From NCBI GenBank assembly GCA_012718975.1, contig JAAYBF010000185.1, positions 66-64,065 on the forward strand: DNA of 64,000 bases. The letters are read 5' to 3'. Within the stretch, counting starts at the first letter, position 1. Each line of letters starts with the position of its first letter. This stretch comes from Solirubrobacterales bacterium (GTDB lineage Bacteria > Actinomycetota > Thermoleophilia > Solirubrobacterales > Thermoleophilaceae). Positions 9,796 to 64,000 of this stretch are shown here, one piece after another. A program made the position numbers and the translations under genes. A model generated the notes under the pieces. It worked only from the letters and a program-made list of their open reading frames with translations. It had not been told where the DNA came from and did no database searches.

Positions 9796-10100
9796 GAGGG
9801 CGCGTCCTCGCCGAGCAGCGAGCGCACCAGCGCCAGCGACGCCTCGGAGCTGCCGGCGCCCTCGACGGTGCCGTAGAGCAGCCGCGCGAGCTGGGACAGC
9901 AGGTACGGGTGGACGCCGATGTCGTAGAGCGCCTTGAAGTCGCGCTCCTCGATCGCCGTGCGCTCCTGCGGCAGCAGCTCGAACTGGTCGAGCACGGCGC
10001 CGGGGTCCTGCTCGAACCGCTGGCGCAGCTCGACGTTCCACTTCATCTGCTGGACGAAGTCGTGCGTCGCCAGCTCGCGGTTGAAGTTCTCGATCGCCAT
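9792..10100 (-). CDS. LigA-type small subunit of a class III extradiol ring-cleavage dioxygenase
   Basis: The product MAIENFNRELATHDFVQQMKWNVELRQRFEQDPGAVLDQFELLPQERTAIEERDFKALYDIGVHPYLL matches the LigA-family pattern. The ATG at 10100 has GGAAGGGGATAGGAAG upstream and sits 19 nt after the ligB-like stop. Confidence 0.8.
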   Translation of the reverse strand: MAIENFNRELATHDFVQQMKWNVELRQRFEQDPGAVLDQFELLPQERTAIEERDFKALYDIGVHPYLLSQLARLLYGTVEGAGSSEASLALVRSLLGEDAPS

Positions 10101-11005: not shown

Positions 11006-11680
11006 TCAGCTCGCGGCGGGGGACGCGACGAACGAGACGGGCGCGGCGGGCGGGGGGCCGACCTCGAGCCGCCAGGAGACGAAGTCGCGGAAGGCGGTCA
11101 TGAACGTCTCGACGAGCGCCCGGGTCGGCTCGTCGACGAGCCGACCGTCGCCGTCGAAGCGCTCCCAGGCCTTCTGCACGAAGACCTCGGGGCGCAGCAT
11201 CGGCTGGCTGTCGGTGAAGTGGCAGAGCGCGCGCAGGCCCTGCTGGGCGCGGACGGTCCCCATCAGGCCGGCCGAGGCGCCCATCATCCCGACGGCCTTG
11301 TGGCGCAGCGGGCTCGCGTAGGGGCTCTCGCCCGCGCAGGAGACCCAGTCGAGCGCGTTCTTGAGCACGCCGGGGAGGCCGAAGTTGTACTCGGGGGTTG
11401 CGATCAGCACGCCGTCGGTGCGGTCGATCCGCGCGGCGAGGTCGGCGACCGCGTCGGGGAGCCCCTGCTGGCGGACGTCGTCGTCGAAGGGGGGGATCGC
11501 GCGCAGTCCGTCGTAGCGGTCGAACTCGAGGTCCGCGGGCGCGAGCTCGAGCGCCGTGCGCAGCAGCGCGGCGTTGAAGGAGCCCCTGCGCAGGCTGCCA
11601 CAGATCGCGACGATCGACAGCGCGCGGGACGGCTCGGCGGGCGCTCCGCCGGCCGCCTCGCCGGTTGACTGGTCACCCAT
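11006..11680 (-). CDS. NADPH-dependent FMN reductase family protein
   Basis: ATG at 11680. Contains IVAICGSLRRGSFNAALL...LIATPEYNFGLPGVLKNALDW, typical of the FMN_red family. It is the first gene of the 11680-to-4098 operon. Confidence 0.85.
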   Translation of the reverse strand: MGDQSTGEAAGGAPAEPSRALSIVAICGSLRRGSFNAALLRTALELAPADLEFDRYDGLRAIPPFDDDVRQQGLPDAVADLAARIDRTDGVLIATPEYNFGLPGVLKNALDWVSCAGESPYASPLRHKAVGMMGASAGLMGTVRAQQGLRALCHFTDSQPMLRPEVFVQKAWERFDGDGRLVDEPTRALVETFMTAFRDFVSWRLEVGPPPAAPVSFVASPAAS

Positions 11681-15174: not shown

Positions 15175-16668
15175 TCACATGCCGTCGAGCTCGACCGTGA
15201 CCGTCTTCGCCTCGGTGAAGAAGTCGCGCGAGTGGACGCCGCCCTCGCGGCCCACGCCCGACAGCTTCGCCCCGCCGAACGGGGTGCGCAGATCGCGCAC
15301 GAAGAAGCAGTTGACCCACACCAGCCCGGCGCGGACCGAGGCCGCGACGCGGTGGGCGCGCGAGAGGTTGGTCGTCCAGACCATCGCCGCGAGCCCGTAC
15401 GGGGTGTCGTTGGCGCGCTCGAGCGCCTCGGCCTCGCCGTCGAACGGGCTGACCACCAGCGCGGGCCCGAAGATCTCGTCGCGCACGCAGCGGTGGTCGG
15501 CGGGCAGGCCCTCGATGATCGTCGGCTCGACGTAGAAGCCGTCGGCGAGCGCGGGGTCGGACGGGACGCCGCCGCCGAGGCGGACGGCGCCGTCCGCGGT
15601 CCCGGACTCGAGGAAGCCGACGACGCGGTCGCGGTGCTCGGCGGTGACCATCGGGCCGATCTGGGTGGCGGGATCGAGCGGGTCGCCGATCGGCAGCGCC
15701 TTCGCGCCGGCGATCAGCCGCTCCATGAACTCGTCGTAGATCGGCCGCTCGAGCAGCAGCCGCGAGCCGGCGAGGCAGACCTCGCCCTGGTTCTTGAAGA
15801 TGCCCTTCAGCGTGCCGGCGACCGCCAGGTCGAGGTCGGCGTCGGCGAAGACGATGTTCGGCGACTTGCCGCCCAGCTCGAGCGACAGCCCCTTCAGCGT
15901 CGGCGCCGCGTTGGCCATGATCGCCTTGCCGGTCGTCGACTCGCCGGTGAAGGTGACGAGGTCGACGTCGGGGCTCGCGACGAGGTACTCGCCGGCCGCG
16001 TCGGGGCCGAAGCCCTGGACCACGTTGAGCACGCCCGGCGGCAGCACCTCGGCGGCCAGCTCGCCGAGCATCGTCGCGGTGACCGGCGACTGCTCGGCGG
16101 GCTTGAGGATCGCCGTGTTGCCGAACGCGAGCGCCGGCGCGATCTTCCACGAGCCGAGCATCAGCGGGAAGTTCCAGGGCGAGATCGCGGTGACGACGCC
16201 CTTGGGCTCGTAGCGACTGTAGGTGAGGTGCTTGGTGGCGGGGAAGACCTCGGCCTCCGACATCCGCAGCCAGTCGGCGAAGAAGCGCAGGTTGCGCTCG
16301 ACGCGCGGCAGGTCGAAGGTGCGCGACTCGGTGATCGGCTTGCCCATGTCGCGCGTCTCGGCCTGGGCGATCTCCTCGCGCCGGTCGTGGACGGCGTCGG
16401 CGAGGGCGTGCATCAGCTTGCCGCGCTCGTCGGCGGACATTCGCGGCCACGGCCCCTCGTCGAACGCGCGGCGGGCGGCGGCGACGGCGCGGCGGACGTC
16501 CTCGGCCCCGCCCTCGGCGACCCGCGCCCAGACGCGGCCGGTGTGCGGGTCGACGCTCTCGAAGGTGCGGCCGTCGGCGGACGGGACGGCCTCGCCGTCG
16601 ATGACGTGCAGCACGTCGCGGCCGAAGTCGCGGTGCTCGAGCCGCTGCTGGTCGGCGGTCTGGGTCAT
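15175..16668 (-). CDS. 2-hydroxymuconic/2-aminomuconic semialdehyde dehydrogenase-type ALDH
   Basis: 497 aa with ALDH motifs ISPWNFP, FTGESTTG, LELGGKSP and GEVCLAGSR. It sits within a meta-cleavage operon. Confidence 0.88.
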   Translation of the reverse strand: MTQTADQQRLEHRDFGRDVLHVIDGEAVPSADGRTFESVDPHTGRVWARVAEGGAEDVRRAVAAARRAFDEGPWPRMSADERGKLMHALADAVHDRREEIAQAETRDMGKPITESRTFDLPRVERNLRFFADWLRMSEAEVFPATKHLTYSRYEPKGVVTAISPWNFPLMLGSWKIAPALAFGNTAILKPAEQSPVTATMLGELAAEVLPPGVLNVVQGFGPDAAGEYLVASPDVDLVTFTGESTTGKAIMANAAPTLKGLSLELGGKSPNIVFADADLDLAVAGTLKGIFKNQGEVCLAGSRLLLERPIYDEFMERLIAGAKALPIGDPLDPATQIGPMVTAEHRDRVVGFLESGTADGAVRLGGGVPSDPALADGFYVEPTIIEGLPADHRCVRDEIFGPALVVSPFDGEAEALERANDTPYGLAAMVWTTNLSRAHRVAASVRAGLVWVNCFFVRDLRTPFGGAKLSGVGREGGVHSRDFFTEAKTVTVELDGM

Positions 16669-16859
16669 CGGTCCTCCATCTCGCTCTTCGGCACTCCCCC
16701 GACGCCCCAGTGCTCGGCCGGGACCTCGGAGAGGATCACCCGCACCGACGCGCGCGGCGCGCCCGTCGTCTCGACGACGGCGTCGGTCAGGCGGGCGATC
16801 AGCTCGCTCTTGACCGCCGTGTCGCGGCCCTCGATCAGGGTGACCTGGACGAGCGGCAT
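16665..16859 (-). CDS. 4-oxalocrotonate tautomerase family protein
   Basis: 64 aa starting [12 protein letters not shown] (catalytic Pro-1 context). It overlaps the upstream stop by 1 nt (TGATG). Confidence 0.85.
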   Translation of the reverse strand: MPLVQVTLIEGRDTAVKSELIARLTDAVVETTGAPRASVRVILSEVPAEHWGVGGVPKSEMEDR

Positions 16860-17638
16860 CAGGCCGCCGCCGTCACGGTGCCGAGGCCGTCGAACTCCGC
16901 GCTGACCGTCTGCCCGGCGCCGATCGCGACGGCGTCGGTGAGCGCCCCGGAGAGGATCAGCGAGCCGGCGGGGAGGGTCCTGCCCTGCTCGGCGAGGCGG
17001 TTGGCCAGCCACGCCACGGCGGCCGCCGGGTGCTCCATCACGGCGGCGCCCGCGGCGGTGGCGACGAGCTCGCCGTCGCGGCGCAGGACGCAGCCGAGCA
17101 GGCGCAGGTCGCCGACGTCGGCGGGCGCGGCGGCGACCGGGCCGACGATCAGGCTCGCGGCGCTGGCGCTCGCGTTGTCGGCGACGACATCGGGGAGGCG
17201 GAAGTCGAAGTCGCGGTAGCGCGAGTCGATCACCTCGAGCGCGCCGAAGACGGCCTCGGTCGCTGCCAGCACCTCGACGACGGTCGTCGGCCCGGCCAGC
17301 TCCTCGCCGAGCAGGAAGGCGATCTCCGGCTCGACGCGCGGATGGATCAGCCGATCCAGCGGCAGCGGCGTCGCGGCCTCGTGGACCATCGCGTCGGTGA
17401 GCCAGCCGTAGAGCGGGTCGTCGACGCTCATCTGGCGCTGCTTGGCGCGGCTGGTGAGGCCGAGCTTGGCGCCGACGATCCGCTCGCCGGCGGCGAGCCG
17501 GCGCTCGATCCCCCGCCACTGGACGTCGTAGGCCTGCTCGATCGTCAGGTCGGGCTCGGTCGCGGTGAACCGCTCGATGTCGGTCACCTGCTCGACGGCG
17601 GCGGCGAGCCGGTCGGCGATCGCGTCGAGGTCAGGCAC
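16859..17638 (-). CDS. 4-oxalocrotonate decarboxylase / 2-oxopent-4-enoate hydratase family protein (copy A)
   Basis: 259 aa with a GTG start. Contains [14 protein letters not shown] and [10 protein letters not shown], typical of the MhpD/XylI/XylJ fold. A second paralogue lies at 19525..20346. Confidence 0.85.
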
Positions 17639-18653
17639 TGGCGGCCTCCCTTGCGGCGGCCATCTCGGCGGCCACCTCGATGATCAGGTCCTCCTGCCCG
17701 CCGACGGCCTTGCGCCGGCCGATCTCGAGCAGGATGTCGCTGGCGCGGACGCCGAAGCGCTCCTCGGCGCGGCGCGCGTGCAGCAGGAACGACGAGTAGA
17801 CGCCCGCGTAGCCGAGCACGAGGCTGTCGCGGTCGACGATCTGCTCGCGCGGCATCAGCGGCGCGACGACGTCCTCGGCGACGTCGGCGATCTTCAGCGG
17901 GTCGACGCCGGTCTCGATGCCCATCCGCGCGCAGGCGGCGACGAGGATCTCGGTCGGCGTGTTGCCGGCGCCGGCGCCGAGCCCGCGCGTGCAGGCGTCG
18001 ATCCAGCGGGCGCCGGCGTCGATCGCGGCGAGCGAGTTGCCGACGCCGAGCGACAGGTTCTGGTGGCCGTGGAAGCCGACGGCGACCTCGTCGGGCAGCG
18101 CGTCGCGCAGCGCGCCGACGCGGGCGGCGGCGGTGTCGGGCACCAGCGCCCCGGCGGAGTCGGTGACGTAGACGACCTCGGCGCCGGCCTCGGCCATGAT
18201 CGCCGCCTGGCGGGCGAGCTCGTCCGGCTCGGTCATGTGGGCCATCATCAGGAAGCCGATCGCGGTCATCCCGAGCTCGCGGGCGAGCCCGAGGTGCTGG
18301 ATCGAGATGTCGGCCTCGGTGCTGTGGGTGGCGATCCGGACGACCGCGGCGCCGAGCTCGCGGGCCCGCTTGAGGTCGTCCTTGGTGCCGATCCCGGGCA
18401 GCAGCAGCACGGCGAGCCGGGCGTCGTCCATCGCCTCGCGGGCGGCGGTCAGCAGCTCGAGCTCGTCGGTGCCGGAGAAGCCGTAGTTGAACGAGGAGCC
18501 GGCGAGGCCGTCGCCGTGGGCGACCTCGATCACCGGCACGCCGCAGCCGTCGAGCGCCCCCGCGACCGCGCTGACCTGCTCGCGCGTGTACTGGTGGCGC
18601 ATCGGGTGGCTGCCGTCGCGCAGCGTCGAGTCGCAGAGCGTGATCGCGGTCAC
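17631..18653 (-). CDS. 4-hydroxy-2-oxovalerate aldolase
   Basis: Starts [19 protein letters not shown] and contains [23 protein letters not shown], a DmpG/MhpE/BphI-type sequence. GTGA overlap. Confidence 0.92.
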
Positions 18654-19528
18654 GACGCCACCGCCTCGACCTGGGCGAGCTCCTCGCCGACGCGGACGGC
18701 GGCGGCGGTCATGATGTCGAGGTTGCCGGCGTAGGGCGGCAGGTAGTCGCCGGCGCCCTCGACCTCGATGAAGACCGCGACGCGGTCGTCGTCGAAGACC
18801 GGCTCGCCGCGCAGGCGGTAGCCGGGAACGTAGCCCTGGACGCGCGCGGCCATCGCCTGGATGCTCTCCGCGATCGCGTCGCGGTCGGCGCCGGGCGTGA
18901 GCGCGCAGAACACGGTGTTGCGCATCAGGATCTCCGGCTCGGCGGGGTTGAGGATGATGATCGCCTTGCTGTCGCGGGCGCCGCCGATGTCGGCGACCCC
19001 ACCGGCGGTCGTACGGGTGAACTCGTCGATGTTCTGGCGCGTGCCGGGGCCGGCGCTGGAGCTGGAGATCGTCGCGACGATCTCGGCGTAGGGCACCTCG
19101 GTCGCGGCGCTGACAGCGGCGACGATCGGGATCGTCGCCTGCCCGCCGCAGGTGATCAGGTTGACGTCGGGGGCCGAGCGATGCTCGTCGAGGTTGACGA
19201 CCGGGACGACGCCGGGGCCGAGCTTGGCGGGCGTCAGGTCGATCGACTGCACGCCGACGGCGGCGAGCTTCTCGGCGTGGACGACGTGGGCGGACGCGGA
19301 GGTGGCGTCGAAGGCCATCGCGACCGAGTCGGCGTTGTCGACGAGCCAGTCGATCCCCTCGTGGGAGGTCTCCAGCCCGGCGGCGCGGGCGCGGGCGAGG
19401 CCGTCGGACTCCGGGTCGATGCCGACCATCGCGACCGGCTCGAGCCGCTCGGAGCGCGACAGCTTGGCCATCAGGTCGGTGCCGATGTTGCCCGAGCCGA
19501 CGATCGCGCAGGGGACGCGTTCGCTCAT
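18650..19528 (-). CDS. Acetaldehyde dehydrogenase (acetylating)
   Basis: Starts [16 protein letters not shown] and contains [12 protein letters not shown], a DmpF/MhpF/BphJ-type sequence. ATGA overlap. Confidence 0.92.
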
Positions 19529-44032: not shown

Positions 44033-46780
44033 CTATCGGCCTCCCTTGGCCTTGGTCTTGGTCGTGGACTTCGCCCTGCACGGGGTGGTGACTCTCAGGC
44101 CGCGTGCCCGCACCTTCCCGTTCTGACCGCGGAACACGGTCCTGGCGATGTGCTTCTTGGGCTTGGCGCAGAGGTTGATGTCGCCCCTGCGGCTGCCAGT
44201 CACGGCGAGGATGCCGTTCTGGCCACCCTTGATGTTGAGGTTGAACTTGGCGATCGGAGCGTCGGGCACACCGGCGAAGGTGTTGACCAGACGCCCGTTC
44301 TTGGTCGTCGAGGACTTGCCGACCAGGTTGACCGCGATCTCGCCGCGGAGGGCGGCCACGATCATCGGCAGCGTCCGGATCTCGTTGCCCGTGTCGGGGT
44401 CGATCCGGATGTTCTTGACGAAGTACACGTTGCCGACCAGGTCACGCTCCAGCAGCGGCGTCTTCGCCCGCGCCCGCCCCACGATCGAGCCCTCGGGGCA
44501 GTGCTTCTCGAGATCCGGCTTGGTCCCGTCCTCGAACTCGCACAGCGCCTGCGCGTTGTCGGGGTCGAGCGCCAGGCTCGGCGGAAGCACGACCCTGGCG
44601 CGCCGGATGCCCGCCTCGCCGATCCCGGTCTGCCGCACCTCCGCACGGACACCCGGGTGCTTCCCGGTCCGCGTCTGGCGCGGGCCGGTGAGCCGGAGAC
44701 CGAGGCGCGGCTTGAACTTCAGGTCGGCGCAGTCGCTGGCCTGGAACCGTGCCGAGACCGGCGCCGACTGCCCGGCGGCCGAGCCGAGCACCCCGTCGAC
44801 CTGCTTCTGCGCGCACGAGGTCGGGTTGATCATGAAGCCCGGCTTGTCGACGAGCACGTCGACGCGCTGCAGCCGGACCGGGACGCCCTTGACGATCGTC
44901 GGCAGCGGATCGCTGACGACGCTCACCTCGGCGGTGAACGGATCGACGTAGACCTTCTGGCGGACGACGACCTCGCCGAGGTCGAACGGGCCGGCCTTCG
45001 CCGGGACCACGACCCGCAGGCTGTAGGGGGCATCCCCGTAGGCGCCCTCGAGCGTGACCGTGCCGGGCAGCATGAACGGCTGCCCGCCGGGACCGGCGAA
45101 CGTGCGGACCGATCCGACCTGGGTGTTGAGGTTGCCCTTGATCTTCGCGAGCAGCCCGGTGGGCATCTCCAGCGACACCCCGTTCATGGCGGTGTCGCGG
45201 TCGGGCTTGGCTATGTGCAGCGCGAACGGCGAGAACGCGCCGCCGGTCGGGTCGGTCGTGCCGGCCGAGAAGGTCGGCGAGAACCCGCCGAGGCCGGCGG
45301 TGCAGTCGACGTCGAACTCAGAGGTGCGGTCGACCGTCTGGCCACCCCAGGAGCTGAGCTCGATGTCGATCGTCTTGGTGCCGCAGGTCGGCGGCGTCGC
45401 GAGCGGCGCCCGCGGACCCGACTTGAGGTCGAGCTCGATGCTCGACACCGGCAGCTCGGGGTTGTTGTCGAACGTGGTCACCAGCCGCCCGGTGCTCGCG
45501 TCGGCGCGGACCTGGCCGGGAAGCCGGACCGAGATGCCGCGCTTCTCGTTCTCCAGGACCAGCGCCAGGCGGAACATCTCCCCGGACTGCGGGTCGCTGG
45601 AGTTCTGCGAGCGGATGTAGACCCCGCCGGAGATCTCCTCCTCCATCAGCGGCGACTTCGCCGTGACGGTGCCGACCTTCGAGGCCTCCGGGCACTCGAC
45701 CGGCTGCTTGGACTTCAGCTTGAGCTGGGCGTCGGAGCAGGCCTGGAGGCCGTTGGCCGCCGACGGGTTGATCGTCATCCCCTCGGGGAGCGTGACGACC
45801 GCCTTCTTGAGCGCCGGCGGCGCCTGACCCTCATCGTTGTCCTCCTGCGGGAACGACATGTCGACGTCGAGCCCGCTCGGCGCGTCGGGCGCCGTCGTCG
45901 TCGGCGCGATGTCCACCGACGGCTCGAACTCCAACGTGTCGCATGAGGTGATCAGCGGCGACACCGCCTGGGCGGTCTTGAAGACACCGGGATTCGTCCA
46001 GCTGTCGGTCTCGAGGACCGTCACCGGAGCCTCCGCCGGACAGTTCGTCGTCGAGTTCGTCAAGAACGGCTTCTCGAACGCTCCGGGCTCGCCCTTCTCC
46101 CGACAGCGGAAGTTCGAGTTGTTCGGGATGAAGTCCATCTCCACGCCGTAGCTACAGAACGTGGTGTCGACGCTCTTCAGGAAGTTGTTGTTGATCGCCG
46201 GCACGTTCATGTTCACGCCGTAATCACCATCGGAACGCAACTCCGGATACACGATGAACGTCAGGCTGGCCTCGCTGAACCCGAACTCCGCCGGGTAGCC
46301 GTCCTCCGGGGCAACATTGACCACCGGCGTGTTGAGATCAGTCAAACCGCGGACCCGCACCCACCCGACAAACGAATCCTCCGGACAGAACGTCGGCGCG
46401 GCCGAGTTCGTCTGAGCGCCGACGGTGTCCAGCGGGCAGGTACCCGCGGCCTGGGGATTGCCGACGAAGCCGGCCGGGAGCCGCATGCTCAGCGAGCGCG
46501 GGTCCTCGACAGGCCGCTGCGGCGCGAGGGTGTTCGACGGGGACACCCCCGGGCCTGGATCGTAGGTGTTGAACGCGAAGAACGCCCTAGCCGAGTGCGG
46601 GTGCGCGCTGGCGCGTGTCTCGTCCTCACCAGCAGCATTCTTGACCTCGGTGAAGAACGAGCTGATGCCGTACTCGCTGCCCGGTGGCGGACCGACCGCG
46701 CCCGCGGGCGCGGTCGCCCCCAGCATCGCGATGGCCGCCAGGCCCACCGATAGCGCACACCGGCCCAGGAATCGCTCCAT
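44033..46780 (-). CDS. Large secreted Cys-rich modular protein, unknown function (P1)
   Basis: I prefer the start at 46780 (MERFLGRCALSVGLAAIAMLGATAPAGA = signal peptide) with GGAAAGG upstream. It has three repeats of LPxG..NP...C-x13-17-CPExSxVG and a basic tail ending KAKGGR. Confidence 0.8.
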   Translation of the reverse strand: MERFLGRCALSVGLAAIAMLGATAPAGAVGPPPGSEYGISSFFTEVKNAAGEDETRASAHPHSARAFFAFNTYDPGPGVSPSNTLAPQRPVEDPRSLSMRLPAGFVGNPQAAGTCPLDTVGAQTNSAAPTFCPEDSFVGWVRVRGLTDLNTPVVNVAPEDGYPAEFGFSEASLTFIVYPELRSDGDYGVNMNVPAINNNFLKSVDTTFCSYGVEMDFIPNNSNFRCREKGEPGAFEKPFLTNSTTNCPAEAPVTVLETDSWTNPGVFKTAQAVSPLITSCDTLEFEPSVDIAPTTTAPDAPSGLDVDMSFPQEDNDEGQAPPALKKAVVTLPEGMTINPSAANGLQACSDAQLKLKSKQPVECPEASKVGTVTAKSPLMEEEISGGVYIRSQNSSDPQSGEMFRLALVLENEKRGISVRLPGQVRADASTGRLVTTFDNNPELPVSSIELDLKSGPRAPLATPPTCGTKTIDIELSSWGGQTVDRTSEFDVDCTAGLGGFSPTFSAGTTDPTGGAFSPFALHIAKPDRDTAMNGVSLEMPTGLLAKIKGNLNTQVGSVRTFAGPGGQPFMLPGTVTLEGAYGDAPYSLRVVVPAKAGPFDLGEVVVRQKVYVDPFTAEVSVVSDPLPTIVKGVPVRLQRVDVLVDKPGFMINPTSCAQKQVDGVLGSAAGQSAPVSARFQASDCADLKFKPRLGLRLTGPRQTRTGKHPGVRAEVRQTGIGEAGIRRARVVLPPSLALDPDNAQALCEFEDGTKPDLEKHCPEGSIVGRARAKTPLLERDLVGNVYFVKNIRIDPDTGNEIRTLPMIVAALRGEIAVNLVGKSSTTKNGRLVNTFAGVPDAPIAKFNLNIKGGQNGILAVTGSRRGDINLCAKPKKHIARTVFRGQNGKVRARGLRVTTPCRAKSTTKTKAKGGR

Positions 46781-46812
46781 CCTGTTTGCCTTTCCAGCCG
46801 ACTCGACCGACA

Positions 46813-49800
46813 TCAACGACCGCCCTTCTTGGCCTTGTTCTGTTTCCGCTGCGGCTGCTTGAAGGTGACCCTCACGGTCCTGGAAGCGGACTGGCCGTCC
46901 TTGGCCCGATACGAGATCCGGACACGGACCTTCAGCGCCTTGCGCTTCCTCAACGCCTTCCTCGCACGGAAGCCCAGGGCGACCTTCACCGTGTAGCTCC
47001 CGGCCCTCGACGCGAACCGCCTGGTCCGCCGGACCGCGCGGCCGGCAACTGAGATCCGTCCCGCGTCCGGCACCCGCACCTTCAACCGTCCAGCCGGTCC
47101 GGTGACCGCCTTCACCTTCGAGACGCCGACCACAGCCCTCTTCTCATGCGGGACGTTCCCTTCTCCGCCAGAGCGCACCGAGCCGATCGAATCAGGCGCC
47201 GGCGGAGCCGACAGCTCCCCCTGACACCCCTCACCCTGACACGGCTCGGGCGGCGCCGGCGACGGCGCGAACCCGCCACCCCGACGCAAGACGTACGTCG
47301 CCACCGAGCCGCTGGTGTGCTCAGGCAGCAACGGCGCGGCGGTCGTGATCGTGATCGTGTCCCCAGACGGCGACATCGTCACCGCTCCCGCGTCCTGAAT
47401 CGACTGCCCGGACGACAGCAGGAAGAACTCGTCGTCCGCGGCCCGCCACAGATACGCGTCCTCGGCCGTGTTCACATCGTCAGGACTCAAGCGCTCCGCC
47501 GTCTTGAAGATGAAGCTGGCGCCACCATTGGAGAACTGACGAGCCGCGCCGTGGCGATTCGAGACCGACTGCAGCGAGCCGGTGCCATTGGCCGCTGTCA
47601 TCGTCCCGAAATCCGGCGATATCCCGGCGCTGCGGGCCGCGCCGTTGTGGTCGGGATCGTCCGGCCAGAGTCGCCGCAGGCCCCCGCTGTGGGCATCGAA
47701 GCGAAAGACATCGTTGAACGTATCGCCGGGCAGGCGATCCCCGGCGAGATCGGCCGTGCTCAAGAAGAATGCGTACCGTCCCGAATCGGACAGCTGGATC
47801 TTTCGACGCACATCGCCAGCCCAAAGATCGGCGTCGGCGGCCGCGAGCGTCCCCACGAACTTGATCGTTCCGGCCGGATCGGGCGCTGGACGGTGGTACA
47901 CGTACAGGTTTGGCTGACCAGACTGCGGCGTGTTGCCATAGACGTTTGCACCCGCGAGCGCCCGCCCGTTGGCCACGAAGTAGACACGGCTACCGTCATC
48001 GGACACCCGCACGACGTTGAGCACACCGGCTCCGTCCGCCTCCGTGCCGATCGTCACCGGGACCAGCTTGTTGCCCGGACGCTCGAAGTCGTACTCGTAC
48101 AGATCCATCTTGCTGGCCGTGTCCAGATCGCCGTCAACCAGCTTCTGCTCGGTCTTGAAGTACACGCGGTTGCCGTCCCGAGACGCGCCCGAGAACGCCG
48201 CGCGCTGCTGCACTCCACAATCGGTCGTGCACTGCGTTGCAGAAAGGTCGACGGGATCGTTCGCCCCCTCCTTCATCCACACACGATTGACCGCGGCCGA
48301 GTTGCAAGCCGGGAGCGCCAACGACGGAGTGAAGAAGATCCGCTGACCATCCGCAGACACCGCATGCAGCCCAGTCACACCCGTGGTGCCGAGATACCCA
48401 CCGAGATGCATGGTGCACGTCGGAAACATCGTGGCGCCCCCGCTGAACGCCACCTGGCGAGTCTCGATCGAACCGTCGGGCTGACGCACGGCGACCATGA
48501 GGGTCTCGCGTGAGGTCGGACGCGCGTCGACGGTCCCGTCGGTCAGCGCCGGCCGATCCTTGGTCCTGAACACGACGGTATTCAGATCGGCCGATGTCCC
48601 CACGATGGTGCTCGAACCGGTCGAGTCGTCGAGTACGGGGCCCGCGACGCGCATGGTCCCATCGCTCTCCCGGATGAACGGGGTGAAGCGATTCGTGCCG
48701 ACGTCGGCGCGCGCGTTGCCCATCCAAAGCGCGCGTGAGCCATCGTCGGTGTGATCCCGGACCCCGCCCTGCCCCTGCAAGAACGGGTACACGGATCCGG
48801 GCGGAGTGAGCGGCTCGGTCACCCAGCCGGACTCGGTCCTGCGGGCGAAGTACAGGTTGTTGAAGTTCGTGAGATTCTCGGAGTCGGCGAACCCGCCCGC
48901 TGAACTGAACAGCAGCGAGTTGCCTTCGGGATTCATCGCTCCAGCAAGAGCACGCTGCCCGCTGGTCCAGTTCGGCGTGGCCAGCTCGTATGCGAAGCAC
49001 ATGGGTAGGACCTGGGCGGCGAGTCCTTGCTGGGCGCGGATGTCGGCGTTCGGGCACGGGTCGTGGGGTGCTACGTCGCTGCGGAAGGTCCGATCGGCTC
49101 CGAGAGCGGTGCCGCCACCGTTCTCGGCGACGAGGCGGTAGTGGTAGGTGGTGTCGGGCTGGAGCCGGCCGGTCGTCGCCGACACGTCCACGACGTCCTC
49201 ACCGGGCCCCAGCTTGGGCGGCTGGCAGGCGGCGCGGCGGCCGTAGTCGGTCGTCAGGCCGTACTCGAAGTAGCAGTCGCTGGTCGGGAACGAGGCGCTG
49301 TTGGGATTGACGGCGCCGGCGAGCTTGGCTGACGGGAAGTCGATATCGCTGGCCGAGCCGGTGGTCACCTCTGGGGCGTCGGGCTTCGGTGCGAATGTCG
49401 CCGTCGCGTCAAGCGGATTGACGAGGACGGCGGCGGTCTGACACGTCGGACTATCCCCCGAGCAGGTGCCTCCCACGGTGCCGGACCAGCCGACGAACGC
49501 CGCGTCCTCGGCCGGCGTGGCGGTGAGCTGGATGCCAGCGAAGTTGATAGGGAAGTCGAAGCTGCAGGCCGTCTGCTCGGCGCCTGGAATGTTCGAGCAG
49601 TCGATTCCCGCGGGATCGCTGACGACGTGCCCGGTCCCGGGTCCCGCGAGCGTTACCGAGACCACCGCGGCGGACGCGCTCGCCGGCAGGGCAGCCACGG
49701 CCAACGCGACGGCGACAACAAGGCCGAGCGGCAATGCCAGCCGCGGCCTGAGAGCGGGGGCCCTTCGCGCTCGTCGTTCGCTTCGGACTGAGTGGGGCAT

Positions 49801-49818
49801 ATCTGTTGGGTCCTCCAT
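46813..49818 (-). CDS. Large secreted multidomain protein (P2): InlB-B-repeat-like, FN3-like, PD40/TolB-like beta-propeller repeats, Ig-like C-terminus
   Basis: Signal peptide RRAPALRPRLALPLGLVVAVALAVAALPASASA. B-repeat-like VTLAGPGTGHVVSDPAGIDC...FVGWSG and FN3-like YFEYGLTTDYG...TTYHYRLVA. Recurrent DG(S/Q/N)R(V/I)(Y/F)F motifs, and a tail ending KAKKGGR. Possible starts are 49818, 49800 or 49881. Confidence 0.8.
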   Translation of the reverse strand: MEDPTDMPHSVRSERRARRAPALRPRLALPLGLVVAVALAVAALPASASAAVVSVTLAGPGTGHVVSDPAGIDCSNIPGAEQTACSFDFPINFAGIQLTATPAEDAAFVGWSGTVGGTCSGDSPTCQTAAVLVNPLDATATFAPKPDAPEVTTGSASDIDFPSAKLAGAVNPNSASFPTSDCYFEYGLTTDYGRRAACQPPKLGPGEDVVDVSATTGRLQPDTTYHYRLVAENGGGTALGADRTFRSDVAPHDPCPNADIRAQQGLAAQVLPMCFAYELATPNWTSGQRALAGAMNPEGNSLLFSSAGGFADSENLTNFNNLYFARRTESGWVTEPLTPPGSVYPFLQGQGGVRDHTDDGSRALWMGNARADVGTNRFTPFIRESDGTMRVAGPVLDDSTGSSTIVGTSADLNTVVFRTKDRPALTDGTVDARPTSRETLMVAVRQPDGSIETRQVAFSGGATMFPTCTMHLGGYLGTTGVTGLHAVSADGQRIFFTPSLALPACNSAAVNRVWMKEGANDPVDLSATQCTTDCGVQQRAAFSGASRDGNRVYFKTEQKLVDGDLDTASKMDLYEYDFERPGNKLVPVTIGTEADGAGVLNVVRVSDDGSRVYFVANGRALAGANVYGNTPQSGQPNLYVYHRPAPDPAGTIKFVGTLAAADADLWAGDVRRKIQLSDSGRYAFFLSTADLAGDRLPGDTFNDVFRFDAHSGGLRRLWPDDPDHNGAARSAGISPDFGTMTAANGTGSLQSVSNRHGAARQFSNGGASFIFKTAERLSPDDVNTAEDAYLWRAADDEFFLLSSGQSIQDAGAVTMSPSGDTITITTAAPLLPEHTSGSVATYVLRRGGGFAPSPAPPEPCQGEGCQGELSAPPAPDSIGSVRSGGEGNVPHEKRAVVGVSKVKAVTGPAGRLKVRVPDAGRISVAGRAVRRTRRFASRAGSYTVKVALGFRARKALRKRKALKVRVRISYRAKDGQSASRTVRVTFKQPQRKQNKAKKGGR

Positions 49819-49896
49819 CGTGCCTTCTCGACTTTCTCCCGCCACGGGCGCCAGCCGGCCAGAAGCGGTACGCATCTCCATCGCTCAGGACACGTC

Positions 49897-49918: not shown

Positions 49919-50098
49919 AGCCATGTCCATGATCTTTCTAAGAAACACCTAGCTACCGATTTCGTCAAGGGGCAACCGTGAGTGGGTGCTCGATCCGGAC
50001 AGGAAGCTGAGGTCCGGCCAGCGCCGACCGGCCCAGAACGCGCGGCGGCGCGCCTAGAGATAGAACGCGCGTGCGCTCGTTGTAGGCTCGGTGGCCGC

Positions 50099-51412
50099 AT
50101 GACGAAGACTCCCTGGGGCGATTCCGAGGAGCTGCGTGCCCGCAAGCTCACGCCGGGGCACCGTCTCCCCGCGGCGGAAGTGGCGCGCAGCCAGCGGGAA
50201 CGCCTGCTCGCCGCGGTCGTCGCCACGGTGGCCGAGCAGGGCTACGAACGGACCTCGGTCGCCGACATCGTCGAGGCGTCAGGGGTCTCGCGCACCGCCT
50301 TCTACAGGCACTTCTCGAACAAGGAGGAGTGCTTCGTCGCGGCGGTCGACGGGACTCTCGAGATCGCGATGGCGGCTATCGGCGAGGCCTACCGCACCGA
50401 GGGCGGCTGGGACGCCCGACTCGTCCGGGCGTTCGAGACCTACGTGAACGAGATCATGGCCCAGCCAGCCGCGGCTCAGATCTGCCTGATCGATACCTTC
50501 GCCGCGGGCCCCGCCGCTATCGAGCGCGTCAACCGCGGCGGGGCGCAGTTCGAGCGGATGCTGCGGCAGAGCTTCGCGCAGTCGCCCCTGCACGCGGGGC
50601 TGCCGCCCTTGGTGGTCCGCGGCATCGTCGGCGGGGTGCGCAACGTGGTCGCGACACGGCTCCGGGTCGGCCAGGCCGACACCCTGGGCGAGCTCGCACC
50701 GGGACTGGGCGCTTGGACGCTGACCTACCGCGCGCCCTCGACCCCGATCCGGCGCCCGCGCGTGCAGCCGGCGGCACCCGGCGCCGCCCGCCCGGACGCC
50801 AACGACCAGATGGCGCGGATCTTCGCCGCGCTCGATTCGGTCGTCCGCGAGAAGGGCTATCTGGCGACCACCCTCGACGACGTCGCCGACCGGTCGGCGA
50901 TCTCGTTCAGCACGTACTACAACTACTTCAGCACCAAGGAAGAGGCGTTTCTCGCCGCCTACGACCAGGGGATCGCCCAGGCGTACGCGGCGTCCGCCCC
51001 CCCGTTCCAGCGCGCCCCGGACTGGCCGCACGGCGTGCGAGCGGCCCTGGAGGGCCTGCTCACCTACCTGGCCCGCGAGCCCGACTGGGCCTACTCGGCC
51101 GTCGTCGAGGTGCTGGCCGTCGGCGCCCCCGGGATAGCGCGCCGCGATGCCGCGATCGAGAAGTTCACGAGGATGCTCGAACCCGGCTTCGAAGAGGCCC
51201 CCGACCTCGCTCCGGTCGCCCGTGAGGCGATCGGCGGCGCGATCTTCGAGACGCTCTACAACCGCATCCGCGAGCGCGACTCGCGCAAGCTGCTCGACCT
51301 GCTGCCGACGGTGACCTTCCTCGCCCTCGCGCCGTTCATCGGGGCCGACGCGGCGGTCGCCGTCGCCAACGAGCGGGCGCCGCGCCGAGTCGCCCACAGC
51401 CGCGCCTCCTAA
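50099..51412 (+). CDS. Tandem (fused double) TetR-family regulator
   Basis: 437 aa with two complete TetR_N HTH segments (YERTSVADIVEASGVSRTAFYRHFSNKEECF and YLATTLDDVADRSAISFSTYYNYFSTKEEAF). Each is followed by a helical ligand-domain-like region. Confidence 0.8.
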   Translation: MTKTPWGDSEELRARKLTPGHRLPAAEVARSQRERLLAAVVATVAEQGYERTSVADIVEASGVSRTAFYRHFSNKEECFVAAVDGTLEIAMAAIGEAYRTEGGWDARLVRAFETYVNEIMAQPAAAQICLIDTFAAGPAAIERVNRGGAQFERMLRQSFAQSPLHAGLPPLVVRGIVGGVRNVVATRLRVGQADTLGELAPGLGAWTLTYRAPSTPIRRPRVQPAAPGAARPDANDQMARIFAALDSVVREKGYLATTLDDVADRSAISFSTYYNYFSTKEEAFLAAYDQGIAQAYAASAPPFQRAPDWPHGVRAALEGLLTYLAREPDWAYSAVVEVLAVGAPGIARRDAAIEKFTRMLEPGFEEAPDLAPVAREAIGGAIFETLYNRIRERDSRKLLDLLPTVTFLALAPFIGADAAVAVANERAPRRVAHSRAS

Positions 51413-60105: not shown

Positions 60106-61072
60106 ATGACCTCGACCGACGTCGCGGAGCTCGCGGCCGACCGTGCGGCCACCAGGCCCGCCGCCGCCGGCTTCGGTCACTGGCCGGCGGTACGCGCCGC
60201 GGCGGTCGTCGCCTACCTAGCGGCGCTGGTCGCCTGGTCGTTCCGCTACGGCATCCCGATCCAGCGCGAGCTGGTGATCGCGTGGACGTGCGGGGCGCTC
60301 GCGTGCGCGTCGCTGGGGCGGAGCCCGCGGCAGATCGTCTGGCTGGTGCGCGACTGGCTGCCGCTGGTGGCGATCCTGCTCGCCTACGACTTCACCCGCG
60401 GAGCGGCGGACTCGCTCGGCATCGCCGTGAACGTGACGCCGATGATCGACTTCGACCGGTTCGTTCCTCGGCGACACTCCGACCGAGTGGCTCCAGGCCA
60501 AGCTCGACGAGCCGGGTGTGGTGCGCTGGTGGGACGTCGCGTTCACGGTCGTCTACACGTCCTACTTCATCGTCCCGTTCGCGGTCGCGGGGGTGCTCTG
60601 GATTCGGGACCGGCTCGCGTTCCTGCGCTTCACGCGGCGGCTGGTGAGCCTGGCGCTCGCCGGGCTGGCCATCTACATCCTGTATCCGGCCGCGCCACCG
60701 TGGATGGCGGCGCAGGAGGGCCTGCTGGAGGGGGTGCGGCGCACCACCGCCGACGGCTGGAGCACGATCGGCATGGGCACCGCGGGCCTCTTCTCGAAGG
60801 GTCAGGCGAGCGTCAACCTCGTCGCGGCGATGCCGTCGCTGCACTCGGCGTTCACGGCCCTGGTGTCGATGTTCCTCTGGCGCCGGGTGAGCGTGTGGTG
60901 GCGGCCGCTGCTCGTCGCGTATCCGCTCGCCATGGGTCTGACCCTGATCGCCACCGGCGAGCACTACTTCGTCGACGTCCTGCTCGGCTGGGCCTACGCC
61001 GGCGCCGTCATGGCCGCCTGGACCTTCTGGGAGCGCCGCCGCGGCCTGCCGGCCGTCGCTGACGGCCGCTGA
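60106..61072 (+). pseudogene. PAP2-family (PAP2_3 / inositol-phosphorylceramide-synthase-like) membrane phosphatase, apparently frameshifted
   Basis: The N-terminal part is in frame 60106 up to MIDFDRFV. The conserved continuation FLGDTPTEWLQAKLDEPGVVRWWDVAFTVVYTSYF...PSLHSAF...GEHYFVDVLLG is in the +1 frame, open from 60446 to 61072. The switch maps to about 60460-60466. Confidence 0.6.
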
Positions 61073-61122
61073 GCCGCGCCGCCTGGCCGCCCCGCCCCCG
61101 CCATGCGAACATGTGCGACGAA

Positions 61123-61195
61123 GGGGCCATAGCTCAGCTGGAAGAGCGCCTGCTTTGCAAGCAGGAGGTCGCCGGTTCGAGCCCGGCTGGCTCCA
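61123..61195 (+). tRNA. tRNA-Ala(TGC): tRNA-Ala (anticodon TGC)
   Basis: Folds as a cloverleaf by hand: acceptor GGGGCCA/TGGCTCC (with the G3:U70 identity pair), D arm GCTC-AGCTGGAA-GAGC, anticodon arm CCTGC-TTTGCAA-GCAGG and T arm GCCGG-TTCGAGC-CCGGC. CCA is not encoded. Confidence 0.95.
61153..61195 (+). repeat. Left copy (inside tRNA-Ala) of the 42/43-nt direct repeat, att-like
   Basis: CTTTGCAAGCAGGAGGTCGCCGGTTCGAGCCCGGCTGGCTCCA is repeated at 63153-63194 with a single C deletion. Confidence 0.85.
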
Positions 61196-61390
61196 TTCGC
61201 GGGATTCGTGGCCAGCAGCGAGATGGCTGGTCACGGACCACGGAGGGGACGCGTGCCGGCGGTGCCGCTTGGAAGCGATTTGGAAGCGCCCGAGCCGCTT
61301 CTGGGCTCGGATTTCCTTGGCCGGTGCCGCTCCTGCCCGATACGTTCGCCGCCGTTGTCGTATCCAGCAACCGCAAGGGAGCGAGCGGCC

Positions 61391-61681
61391 ATGGCCATCA
61401 CCCTCAACCGGGAGCAGCGCGACGCGATGTACTCGCAGCTCCGAACCGACATCACGGGCTTCAACGACATCGAGCTGAACCTGCGAGCCGGCGACTTCGA
61501 CGCGGCGCGCCGCCAGAGCCAGCGAATGTCCGGGACGGCCGCCTGCTCGACGGCCTCGCTGAATAGGAGCATTCAGCCTCGACTATCGCAGAGCAGCGAT
61601 CTCGTGGTCGGGGCGCGACGGTATGCGGTAGTTCCCCAGGTCGAGGTGGAGGTCATCGACCTTGACATCGACAACGGGTAA
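61391..61681 (+). CDS. Hypothetical small protein (island)
   Basis: The ATG is preceded by AGGGAG, and the N-terminal 55 aa have plausible composition (MAITLNREQRDAMYSQLRTDITGFNDIELNLRAGDFDAARR). The 3' third is doubtful and competes with a minus-strand fragment. Confidence 0.3.
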   Translation: MAITLNREQRDAMYSQLRTDITGFNDIELNLRAGDFDAARRQSQRMSGTAACSTASLNRSIQPRLSQSSDLVVGARRYAVVPQVEVEVIDLDIDNG

Positions 61682-61875
61682 CGGTTTGCACGCCATAGCT
61701 CTCTCCCTAGCAACCGCCATCTTGGGCTGCGAGGCTCCGGCAGAACTCGCGAGACCCTCGGGTCGAGGGCTGCGGTGCACACCAGTTCTGGCCATTGGCC
61801 ACTTGCGCACGGAACGGGGGGGCGGTTGGCCCCTGCTACCTGTTCTGGCGCGTCCTCCAGGCCGGGACGGCGAGG

Positions 61876-62967
61876 TCAACCGCGGGCGCGTGAAAGGCTC
61901 TCGGCGGCCTCGTCGGGCGAGTACTGTAGCCGATAGAGACGGTCGCGCCCTCCAACGTGACGGTAGATCGTAATCGTTGACAAGAACTGCCGCTTGAACT
62001 GAACCGCACGGCGACGGGAGTCAGTGTCCGGGTCAAAGATCCACTCAGCTACGGCTGCCGGCAACGCGAAGGTCAACTCAGGCTGCCCCGGCCTCTCGTC
62101 AAGAGTCACGGTCCATCTCTGGCCATTCGCTACGGACGGGCTCCAGTGAATCGAGACCTGCTGGACTGGGTCGGAATCCAGAGCCTCGATCACCAGCATT
62201 GGGTTTCCGGCTCGTAGCAACAGCAGGTACGGGCCGTTGGCCATGCCGACGAATAGCTCTCCCATCGGGCCAATCCGCTCGCGAAGTATTCCCTCAACGT
62301 CATTCCACGCTGCGCCGATGCCGTTCGCTGGCAGTGGAACGCCGTCTGGCCACGTGCCGAGCGCGATCCGGAGGCACGCTCTTAGCTGGCTCACGAACCT
62401 TCGCGCGCGCGAAGGTCCAGCGCGATCTGCATAGAAGGTGTCGGTGATGTCGTCGGCGAGCCTGACGATGTCTCGGAACTCCACCGCGCTGAGATCGACG
62501 AGCGAGATCTGATGCGCAAGTGCGTACTCGGCGGCCGGAGCGCTGAACCCGGACGTCGAGAACAGTGCGTACCGGTAGGTGAACCTGGGCACCAATGCAC
62601 GTCGCGCCCCAGGCGTTCGCTCGACATGCTGGTTCACATCGGAGACGACGCCCAACGCGTTTCGAACGTCGTCAATGCCGCACTTTCGACCGCGTGCCTT
62701 GGCCTCCACGAACAGCCTGATCGGAAATGTAAACGCGGGAATCCACAGCAGTTCTCCGAGGACATCCACCTGATGCAAGCCTCCTCGACCACGAACCGCT
62801 AACCCATTGGGCCGATCTTCGAGTACTCCCGGGTCCTGGCTCGCATCGGCGAGAAGTCGATAGCCAGTGTTCTGGATGAGCTTGGCTAGAAGCTCCTCAA
62901 GCACATAGCCCCGAAGCGTGTCACGCGAGATCGCCACTGAAGCATCCTCTCCGTCCGGGCACATCAC
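61876..62967 (-). CDS. Mrr-like PD-(D/E)XK restriction-endonuclease-domain protein with an uncharacterised C-terminal domain
   Basis: The N-terminal half has GGLHQVDVLG...IRLFVEAKAR...IDDVRNALGVV...YRYALFSTSGFSAPAAEYALAHQISLVDL, which matches the Mrr_cat pattern (D...E-x-K, then a TTS-type strand). I recognise no motif in residues from about 190 to 363. Confidence 0.65.
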   Translation of the reverse strand: MMCPDGEDASVAISRDTLRGYVLEELLAKLIQNTGYRLLADASQDPGVLEDRPNGLAVRGRGGLHQVDVLGELLWIPAFTFPIRLFVEAKARGRKCGIDDVRNALGVVSDVNQHVERTPGARRALVPRFTYRYALFSTSGFSAPAAEYALAHQISLVDLSAVEFRDIVRLADDITDTFYADRAGPSRARRFVSQLRACLRIALGTWPDGVPLPANGIGAAWNDVEGILRERIGPMGELFVGMANGPYLLLLRAGNPMLVIEALDSDPVQQVSIHWSPSVANGQRWTVTLDERPGQPELTFALPAAVAEWIFDPDTDSRRRAVQFKRQFLSTITIYRHVGGRDRLYRLQYSPDEAAESLSRARG

Positions 62968-63152
62968 CGCAAGCCCCTGGCGTCGTCACCTGGACCGGAG
63001 ATGCACGCCAAGGGACCCACGACTCTAACCCCCACCTTTGGAAGTGCCGACGCGCGTCCTGGGTAGCCACAGGCGACGGCGATTGATGCCGATGCCGCTT
63101 CAACTCCGCAAGATGGCCGCAGACGGCGACACCCCGCAACACCCCGCCCACC

Positions 63153-63194
63153 CTTTGCAAGCAGGAGGTCGCCGGTTCGAGCCGGCTGGCTCCA
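63153..63194 (+). repeat. Right copy of the tRNA-Ala 3'-half direct repeat, att-like
   Basis: CTTTGCAAGCAGGAGGTCGCCGGTTCGAGCC-GGCTGGCTCCA. The upstream 30 nt do not form the 5' half of a tRNA. Confidence 0.85.
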
Positions 63195-63270
63195 CTCGCC
63201 GAGCGGCGATCCGGGACGGTGGATGTCGTACGACCGGGGCGATGTAGGCGCGACCTAACGCGCGGCGCCG

Positions 63271-63690
63271 TCAGCTGCCGAGACGCTCGGTGTCCTGCCC
63301 CGTGATCTCGGCGATGAGCTCGAAGTCCTTATCGTCGTGCAGGACCGAGAGGCCGGCGAGTTCGGCTGTCGCGGCTACCAGTAAGTCCGGTACCGAGGGC
63401 GCTCGGTGCTGTCCGCGATCCGCCAGGAGCGTCAGGATCTCGACGGCCCGATCCTCCGAGGTCGGCGTGGCGTACTCGACAGGCATCGACGCAACGGGCG
63501 CCTCACGCAGGCCCGCCCGAAGGTCCCGTGCGTCTCGCGCCGAGTACCCGACCTCGAGCAGGGTCACAGTTGCGATTCGCACCAGCCCCCGCTCGATGCG
63601 ATCGCCCCACACCGCGGCATCCGGGCTGCGCGCGAGCCGGACCAGCGCCGACTTGTCAATCAGCCAGCCCCCCTCCGAAGGCGGGGTCAC
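63271..63690 (-). CDS. vapC: PIN-domain toxin (VapC-like)
   Basis: Contains [27 protein letters not shown] and [14 protein letters not shown] start with a GTGA overlap to the antitoxin. Confidence 0.8.
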
Positions 63691-63908
63691 GACCAGGCTC
63701 GGCGCATGACCTCGGGGTCGCCGAGGTCCGAGAAGCGATCCGCGAATCGCTGCAGGTCGGCGGGGGTCACCGGGCTCGCCGGGCGTGAAGCCTCCTGGCG
63801 AAGCCGGCGCCTCAGATACTCCGTGCGGGAGAGCTTCAAGCGCGCGGCCAGCGCATCGATACGCGCAAGGTCCTCTGCGGGGACGTCACGGATGAGCAGA
63901 TCGGGCAT
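63687..63908 (-). CDS. vapB: Ribbon-helix-helix (FitA/VapB-like) antitoxin
   Basis: The N-terminus [36 protein letters not shown] is a typical RHH antitoxin start. An alternative GTG start is at 63935. Confidence 0.7.
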
Positions 63909-64000
63909 CGGGACGATGCTAGCAGGCGATATCACGCCCCCCCCCGAAGGCCTCGAGTATCCGCCGCCGCTCCGACCGTCGGTCCAGGTCGAACGCGGCG

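Follow-up and report, generated by a model that had tools for sequence, protein, structure and literature searches.

A probable integrase-less remnant of a tRNA-Ala(UGC)-specific element, with a putative stand-alone defence nuclease, in a Solirubrobacterales genome

What placed a gene for an Mrr-type nuclease between two copies of the 3' half of a tRNA-Ala gene, and what might the nuclease do there? The locus occupies positions 61153-63199 of a 64,000-nt stretch of DNA (here called the window, and numbered from its first nucleotide) from a metagenome-assembled genome (MAG) of a Solirubrobacterales bacterium. It is probably the decayed, integrase-less remnant of an ~8.5-kb element specific for tRNA-Ala(UGC), of the type known as cis-mobilizable elements (CIMEs), and it would carry a stand-alone nuclease acting as a single-gene anti-phage or anti-plasmid system. 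Taken by itself, the island-remnant part of this reading is held with high confidence and regarded as settled.

The window contains a single tRNA gene, tRNA-Ala with anticodon TGC (61123-61195, plus strand; 73 nt with a canonical 7-nt T loop; ARAGORN), whose 3' part from the anticodon loop onwards forms one copy of a direct repeat. A repeat search found 31 identical nucleotides at 61153-61183 and again at 63153-63183, the two starts being 2000 nt apart; an 18-nt block of 94% identity prolongs them. Overall, the attL core (61153-61200, plus strand, 48 nt) and the attR core (63153-63199, plus strand, 47 nt), the latter being the displaced 3' part of the tRNA, match at 46/48 positions, with one mismatch and one T-loop C absent from the attR copy (blastn, 95.8% over 48). 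An earlier note on this DNA, made from its letters, had described the repeat as 42/43 nt long with one C missing; it is found as described and is somewhat longer. About 64000^2/2 position pairs divided by 4^31 give only ~4e-10 expected chance 31-mers in 64 kb, so the repeat is not due to chance. It starts one base ahead of the anticodon loop and ends 5 nt beyond the tRNA 3' end; att sites of tyrosine integrases in tRNA genes are commonly laid out like this.

The DNA enclosed by the two cores (61201-63152, 1,952 nt) also differs from its surroundings in composition. Its GC content is 64.0%, against a mean of 72.4% (sd 2.4, minimum 66.2; z = -3.5) in other segments of that length, which makes it the lowest-GC stretch of ~2 kb in the window. 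Its tetranucleotide distance of 0.427 is likewise the largest, the maximum elsewhere being 0.379. The GC and k-mer check proposed in the earlier note thus singles out the insert, and the direction of the GC contrast reported there stands, whereas the hand counts behind it (58% against 75-83%) overstated its size. GC at third codon positions (GC3) is 70% in the nuclease gene vs 96% in the neighbouring PAP2 gene, and the segment that holds the nuclease gene (61714-63037) has a GC content of 63.2%. A scan for sigma-70-type promoters found none within the insert, a result that is uninformative for this phylum.

Both the empty and the occupied form of the site exist. A 1,049-nt contig with a coverage of 1.3 (ENA ERZ747220; L018) equals the window minus 61153-63152 and is an exact empty site, in which the PAP2 3' end, 50 nt and tRNA-Ala(UGC) are followed directly by CTCGCCGAGCGGCGATCC... 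and VapC. The attB junction expected of the empty allele is the tRNA 5' half, then GAGCC-GGCTGGCTCCACTCGCCGAG. Across the 909 nt proximal to the junction there are 0 mismatches to the window, and all 16 mismatches fall within a 137-nt stretch of the PAP2 gene (60813-60949), either a recombination tract between strains or a sign that the contig is partly chimeric. A second short contig (ERZ27268607, a k141 contig; L019), which an exact search with the VapC protein sequence had returned along with the first, agrees with the window at 100%, and one of its ends falls exactly on 63153, the base with which the repeat opens. Such a stop would be expected where an assembly graph branches between two left-hand contexts. 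Four more contigs, from four samples (L105-L108), carry the occupied allele with 100% identity. Since the occupied allele recurs in this way and the empty allele is represented as well, the insert is real and polymorphic, with its boundaries at the repeat.

An intact relative of the element is found at the same target on a 23.7-kb contig (JGI 3300037756; L109), reached through P0267, a homologue of the element's first gene, orf125, that lies directly after tRNA-Ala(UGC). In L109, an ~8.5-kb element with the same att core follows tRNA-Ala (9711-9783). Its genes run orf125, HicB, HicA, an HTH gene, a Dcm-type methylase, Replic_Relax, HTH_17, integrase, orf109, a D12-class methyltransferase and, on the minus strand, orf480, before a second att copy (18239-18292), VapC, VapB and a partial third att copy (18966-19003). 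Pfam recognises Replic_Relax (E 1.4e-25), the excisionase-like HTH_17 (E 2.2e-8) and Phage_integrase (E 6.8e-16), in that order, the last being a tyrosine integrase of 404 aa. The attR-proximal cargo (15649-17989) is assigned by PADLOC to PD-Lambda-5, the D12 methyltransferase being PD-Lambda-5_B (E 4e-96) and orf480 PD-Lambda-5_A (E 1e-32). No Pfam family of an FtsK/SpoIIIE-like main transfer gene is listed among the L109 element genes. The empty site, together with the same tRNA-Ala and att core accompanied by xis and int in L109, bears out the attL/attR signature of site-specific integration that the earlier note had recognised.

Alignment with L109 specifies what the window has kept and what it has lost. 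By blastn, window 61073-61558 corresponds to L109 9650-10169 (tRNA, attL side and the first ~56 codons of orf125), 61589-61713 to 17882-18007 (the 5' end of orf480) and 63038-63933 to 18124-18965 (the attR side and VapBC). Searches of the window with the L109 proteins (tblastn) recover residues 1-50 of orf125 (82% identity), residues 1-37 of orf480 (76%), VapC (86%) and VapB (89% over 73 aa), and none of the other element proteins. About 7.7 kb (L109 10170-17881), including Replic_Relax, Xis and Int, are absent. No integrase was found in the whole 64 kb by tblastn with three integrase queries, nor among the open reading frames (ORFs) of the insert, in agreement with the stranded, integrase-free remnant that was one of the two readings offered in the earlier note.

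The pieces can be followed base by base. The truncated orf125 lies in a 96-aa ORF (61391-61681, plus strand) in which codons 1-50 (61391-61540) are homologous to the 125-aa protein and the remainder is unrelated read-through; the homologues of this ORF have 125 aa, and their alignments cover no more than its first ~52%. GC3 is 0.88-0.95 over 61400-61580, and this periodicity indicates that 61391 to ~61570 is coding on the plus strand. The deletion junction (61559-61588) comprises 30 nt without homology to L109, between blastn segment ends at 61558 and 61589 that equal L109 10169 and 17882. A perfect palindrome with a 7-bp stem (GCTGAAT-AGGAGC-ATTCAGC, 61558-61577) lies almost wholly inside it. 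The remnant of the PD-Lambda-5_A-like gene (orf480 of L109) follows at 61586-61696 on the minus strand, with its N-terminal 37 codons and an upstream region up to ~61735 (tblastn, DNA alignment). Next comes the cargo segment (61714-63037), 1,324 nt that hold the nuclease gene and have no L109 counterpart, 116 nt being found there instead (blastn, alignments).

Short repeats at the insert ends are retained as well. On the attL side, two copies of TTGGAAGCG, 11 nt apart (61269-61288, plus strand), are candidates for arm-type sites at which the integrase binds, and a single copy of TTGGAAGTG (63038-63046, plus strand) stands on the attR side. The motif TTGGAAGYG occurs three times in 64 kb (61269, 61280 and 63038) vs 0.28 expected, always within the insert ends, and in L109 it occurs at 9855, 9866, 18113 and 18124, the same positions relative to the att cores. 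L109 has two copies on the attR side, the distal one of which was lost at the cargo boundary, and the window keeps three of the four. Their number and placement suggest that these repeats are probably arm-type sites bound by the integrase.

A history that accommodates these pieces can be proposed. The parent element would have carried orf125, HicBA, an HTH gene, a Dcm methylase, Replic_Relax, HTH_17, a tyrosine integrase and defence cargo at attR. It would have integrated by recombination within the block from the anticodon loop to the 3' end, supplying a new tRNA 3' half. An internal deletion of ~7.7 kb, reaching from codon 51 of orf125 as far as codon 38 of the PD-Lambda-5_A-like gene, may then have occurred. 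It would have spared both att cores, the 1.3-kb cargo segment and three TTGGAAGYG repeats out of four. The nuclease gene would, on this account, have been element cargo before the deletion.

The 2-kb unit might instead still be alive, as a mini-element that fits the strict definition of a CIME: served by the integrase of a sibling element elsewhere in the genome or community, it would continue to leave and re-enter its site, and this movement would produce the presence/absence polymorphism. This possibility, allowed for in the earlier note as mobilisation in trans, is taken seriously, though it appears clearly the less probable one. In its favour, both att cores and three of the four TTGGAAGYG repeats are kept, and intact integrase-bearing relatives do exist at the same att site. 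Both alleles seem to occur together in one sample series (L019 and L106), and because the flanks of empty and occupied alleles are identical over hundreds of nt, the event behind the polymorphism is taken to be recent. However, the 64-kb window has no integrase, one arm repeat has been lost at the cargo boundary, and a RecA-type deletion between the 31-nt identical blocks gives the same empty-site sequence. Nor was a circular attP junction seen, which would be expected to read ...CCGCCCACC/CTTTGCAAGC...GGCTGGCTCCA/TTCGCGGGATTCG (also written CCGCCCACC then CTTTGCAAGC...GGCTGGCTCCATTCGCGGGATTCG). The polymorphism could arise by excision in trans by a sibling integrase, by homologous-recombination deletion between the 31-nt blocks or by recent integration of a pre-shortened element.

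As a decayed remnant, the locus resembles known classes of element. Like CIMEs, it keeps attL and attR, has lost the integrase, excisionase and replication/relaxase gene, and sits at a tRNA 3' end in tandem to a small att-associated VapBC module. In contrast to the present case from a Solirubrobacterales MAG, CIMEs are described mainly in streptococci, and the precise presence/absence polymorphism is the only, and indirect, evidence for mobilisation of the window remnant in cis (accretion) or in trans, neither of which was observed. The parent type recalls the integrative and conjugative elements of actinomycetes (AICEs), remnants of which are a described category. Like them, the ~8.5-kb L109 element is integrated at a tRNA and has a replication-type gene followed by xis and then int, the order known for pSAM2. 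It differs in that no FtsK/Tra-type transfer gene is listed in it, so it is not filed as an AICE and is better called an integrative, possibly mobilizable element. Its module can be likened to the rep-xis-int module of AICEs and integrative and mobilizable elements (PMC2440964). A decayed tRNA island with a defence gene and an adjoining toxin-antitoxin pair is already a known kind, and the reconstruction, though unusually complete, is not very surprising to a specialist. With intact relative, remnant and empty site all present, it gives a rare base-by-base view, from metagenomes alone, of an integrative element decaying to an integrase-less stub with a putative defence gene.

The intact gene of the cargo segment encodes a nuclease of 353 aa on the minus strand (61876-62937). 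The earlier note had taken the gene as the longest ORF, up to 62967; this ORF is real, but the start that matches the homologues and the NCBI call is a GTG at 62937. The 353-aa protein is identical to an NCBI entry named 'restriction endonuclease [Solirubrobacterales bacterium]'. As had been noted, its N-terminal part is an Mrr_cat-type PD-(D/E)xK domain (D58, E78, K80), which Pfam recognises over residues 17-160 (PF04471; 23.5 bits, curated cut-off 21). Across 107 aligned full-length relatives, D58 and K80 never vary, and at least 90% keep E78. An AlphaFold2 model built from this alignment reaches a predicted local distance difference test score (pLDDT) of 91.6 and a predicted template modelling score (pTM) of 0.91, and in Foldseek the N-terminal domain resembles the MspJI nuclease domain (best match), AF1548 and NucS. 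The dN/dS ratio is low, about 0.13 (0.12-0.15, at most 0.16, against three relatives), and against the relative at L001 it is 0.09 for the N-terminal and 0.19 for the C-terminal domain, which indicates that the gene is maintained by selection.

The C-terminal alpha/beta domain (residues ~170-353) was described earlier as having no recognisable motif, and so it appears. At sequence level, nothing significant was found in Pfam, PADLOC, NCBIfam or PHROGs, nor in PDB, which was searched both with the one protein and with a profile of the family, and Foldseek gave no significant match in PDB (full-length and C-domain models) or BFVD. Modelled alone, the domain has a pLDDT of 88, and its fixed positions in the 107-sequence alignment include R186, R190, P236, W265 and P293. 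A PH/FERM-like identity was considered and rejected, the matches being weak (probability at most 0.28). A phmmer search with the domain against 1.84 billion representatives returned 154 proteins (clusters at 50% identity), nearly all with the same two-domain architecture. In P0214, P0224, P0236, P0252 and P0259 (490-610 aa) the domain is matched in two separate stretches, and in these longer forms it may be duplicated in tandem.

We take the protein to be a stand-alone DNA endonuclease directed against incoming DNA, with the C-terminal domain presumably selecting or licensing the target. The Mrr-type domain is predicted to cleave DNA, and the rigidly attached C-terminal domain would most likely recognise the target or gate the nuclease. 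The outcome would be a single-gene nuclease against phages or plasmids, either type-IV-like or sensor-gated. Judged from the genomic neighbourhood of its family, a defence role of any kind is somewhat favoured, while a type-IV-like, modification-dependent mode is only a tentative suggestion.

The neighbourhood in question is varied. Relatives of the gene are found in defence islands and mobile elements of several phyla, and homology between the window and the other family loci is confined to the nuclease gene itself. The gene adjoins a type III restriction-modification (R-M) system and conjugative-element genes in L001, an E1/E2/JAB-patatin protein and an integrase in L002, an OLD/GajA-like ATPase and an integrase in L003, and Ppl-like ATPases in L020, L041, L046, L047 and L071. 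A Desulfosporosinus cluster includes an Eco57I-type methylase, a DEAD/MZB helicase, UvrD, an AriA-like ATPase, an NgoFVII-type enzyme and an SNF2 helicase, and another locus has a D12 methylase, ParB_N, PRTase-CE and PDDEXK_1. On Bacillus and Priestia plasmids the neighbours are type I R-M, an ABC three-component system and AbiH, or an AAA ATPase, a UvrD-family helicase and a HEPN protein. Among 105 immediate neighbours that were scanned, the commonest Pfam families are AAA_21, Phage_integrase, SMC_N and PHP, the last in 3/105. With 2 loci in IMG/VR and 4 records among 72,556 plasmids, the family is not typically phage- or plasmid-borne.

The single-gene defence module proposed in the earlier note finds its support in context only: there is no conserved partner in 86 loci, the neighbours are defence and mobile-element genes, and the gene occupies an attR position like that of PD-Lambda-5. 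A match to a PADLOC model, on the other hand, is missing: with PADLOC-DB v2.0 the window protein hits no family at E <= 0.1, and four relatives hit none at E <= 0.01.

Several points weigh against reading the locus as an element remnant with a defence nuclease. The nuclease family matches no PADLOC, NCBIfam or PHROG model, so that it is the neighbourhood only that argues for defence, and the C-terminal domain offers no functional clue, its best Foldseek matches having E 0.04 and a probability of 0.2. L109 has no nuclease gene, and for this reason we infer, rather than see, that the gene was cargo before the deletion. The empty-site contig has only 1.3x coverage and 16 mismatches clustered at one end, and it derives either from another strain or from a partly chimeric assembly. 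An ABC-type ATPase adjoins the gene in 7/86 loci, which would allow a partner-dependent mode. Finally, nuclease activity, target preference and phage resistance are predictions from sequence, structure model and context.

The Mrr_cat protein could lie outside immunity altogether. It might be a nuclease of DNA repair or recombination, a selfish gene resembling a toxin, or a factor of the mobile element itself involved, for instance, in processing or in the exclusion of competing elements. The PD-(D/E)xK fold also occurs in repair enzymes, and NucS is among the Foldseek matches; the family gene often lies inside integrative or conjugative elements, and no PADLOC defence model was matched. We nevertheless consider a non-immune role rather unlikely. 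The neighbours are mostly known defence genes (R-M, Ppl, OLD/AriA/GajA-like, ABC three-component, AbiH, KwaB and HmaC), the gene adjoins attR, where L109 carries PD-Lambda-5, and its patchy occurrence across phyla in variable contexts is not a housekeeping pattern.

It is still less probable, and indeed quite improbable, that the nuclease and an ABC-type ATPase (Ppl-like or OLD/AriA-like) together make up a two-gene system, and that the orphan copy in the window is inactive or unregulated alone. All-against-all ORF clustering of the 86 loci gave no conserved partner gene. The only recurrent neighbour is the ABC-type ATPase, which comes in two kinds (Ppl-like and OLD/AriA/GajA-like) and is found immediately beside the gene in L003, L020, L022, L041, L046, L047 and L071. 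These ATPases belong to at least two families and stand in differing orientations, most loci with sufficient flank are without one, and the orphan copy is under purifying selection. Ppl is listed as a single-gene system, and the adjacency is therefore explained by co-location in islands.

As a candidate single-gene defence nuclease, the protein can be compared with three known groups. It shares with the type IV enzymes of Mrr/MspJI type the Mrr_cat D...ExK motif, the MspJI nuclease domain as best structural match of its N-terminal domain, and a single polypeptide with a second, non-catalytic domain. Unlike in these enzymes, the nuclease domain is N-terminal rather than C-terminal, and there is neither an Mrr_N winged helix nor an SRA-like domain; dependence on DNA modification would be conjectural. 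Several defence systems are already known to use Mrr_cat as an effector domain (bioRxiv 10.1101/2024.07.02.601686; PMC9122126). In such effectors (Epona, some Avs/NLR-like and Lamassu proteins), as in the window protein, it is fused to a different, presumed sensing or regulatory module and is found in defence islands or mobile elements. Here, however, the partner is not a holin, STAND NTPase or SMC-type protein but a domain of ~180 aa almost exclusive to the family, and no PADLOC model matches. PD-Lambda-5, an experimentally found defence system of methyltransferase and nuclease (PMC9519451), is the attR-proximal cargo of L109 and has left its 37-codon A-gene remnant beside the window nuclease gene; it belongs to a protein family other than that of the Mrr_cat gene and is destroyed in the window. 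Within the large class of PD-(D/E)xK defence effectors, this nuclease family, whose C-terminal domain no library used here recognises, represents an undescribed variant. It is spread across phyla and can reasonably be put forward as a candidate for a new enzyme of restriction or defence that acts alone.

The one-base difference between the repeat copies affects the tRNA itself. The occupied allele has the canonical 7-nt T loop TTCGAGC, whereas in the empty allele (L018 664-736, minus strand) and in the attR copy of the window one C is absent, which leaves a 6-nt T loop. The Rfam tRNA model scores the occupied form, taken from contig L105 with a tRNA-Ala identical to the window copy, at 70.0 bits vs 67.5 bits for the empty form. 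All three L109 att copies carry the canonical CCC, so the C deletion looks derived. One possible history is that the base was lost in the attR copy, which is redundant, and that excision then brought the loss into the tRNA; another is that integration repaired a tRNA already damaged. The difference raises a testable question, namely whether loss of an island can damage the tRNA gene that it targets.

A bolder scenario builds on this difference. The presence or absence of the remnant would toggle tRNA-Ala(UGC): the canonical T loop of the occupied allele would come from the element, and loss of the remnant would install a damaged tRNA with a 6-nt T loop, an addiction that would retain the integrase-less defence cargo. 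A linked part of the same speculation, which as a whole we regard as very doubtful, holds that a conflict between nuclease and methyltransferase selected the 7.7-kb deletion. In the two elements compared, that of the window and that of L109, the Mrr-type gene and the PD-Lambda-5 methyltransferase are mutually exclusive next to attR. Deletion of mrr from E. coli was needed before PD-Lambda-5 could be cloned (PMC9519451). Given this mutual exclusion and the cloning requirement, such a conflict could have selected the deletion.

An artefact of assembly or binning, or a local duplication of ancestral age, was also weighed as the source of repeat and insert, and is by now almost refuted. The window does come from a MAG, and the neighbouring PAP2 gene is frameshifted, but the tRNA-to-nuclease junction recurs at 100% in four contigs of independent origin (four samples), the empty site is precise, and the intact relative L109 has the same att architecture.

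Just outside attR lies the VapBC pair reported by the earlier note, with both genes on the minus strand. VapC (63271-63690) is a PIN-domain toxin (Pfam PIN, E 1.8e-9) homologous to the VapC that follows the second att copy of L109, and VapB (63687-63935) is a ribbon-helix-helix antitoxin (Pfam RHH_1, E 3.9e-4) whose part homologous to L109 VapB starts at 63908. The two genes overlap by 4 nt (63687-63690). In L109, the VapBC pair is bracketed by the second and the partial third att copy (18239-19003) and forms a mini-island of ~0.7 kb, with a toxin-antitoxin pair only, in tandem to the 8.5-kb element. The window is homologous to L109 only as far as 63933, and up to 64000 it shows no third att copy.

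On the other side of the tRNA, the PAP2-family gene (60106-61072, plus strand) is split over two frames near 60465, and its relatives in L007, L009, L010 and L012 stay in one frame throughout; the frameshift reflects either a pseudogene or an assembly error. PAP2 also served as the anchor of a synteny route to an empty site in GTDB genomes, which was abandoned: none of the 13 loci was syntenic, and in none was there a tRNA-Ala(UGC) after PAP2 or a flanking gene in common with the window. One PAP2 relative, L006, has an unusually long 80-nt 'tRNA-Ala(cgc)' call (11068-11147) ~540 nt downstream of PAP2, and the other PAP2 relatives have no tRNA there.

A second low-GC stretch of the window, with ~66.6% over 45-50 kb, coincides with two very large ORFs of 927 and 1,022 aa (44033-49881, minus strand), in which no Pfam family was found except a weak InlB B-repeat match. 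A TetR-family regulator follows them at 49982-51412.

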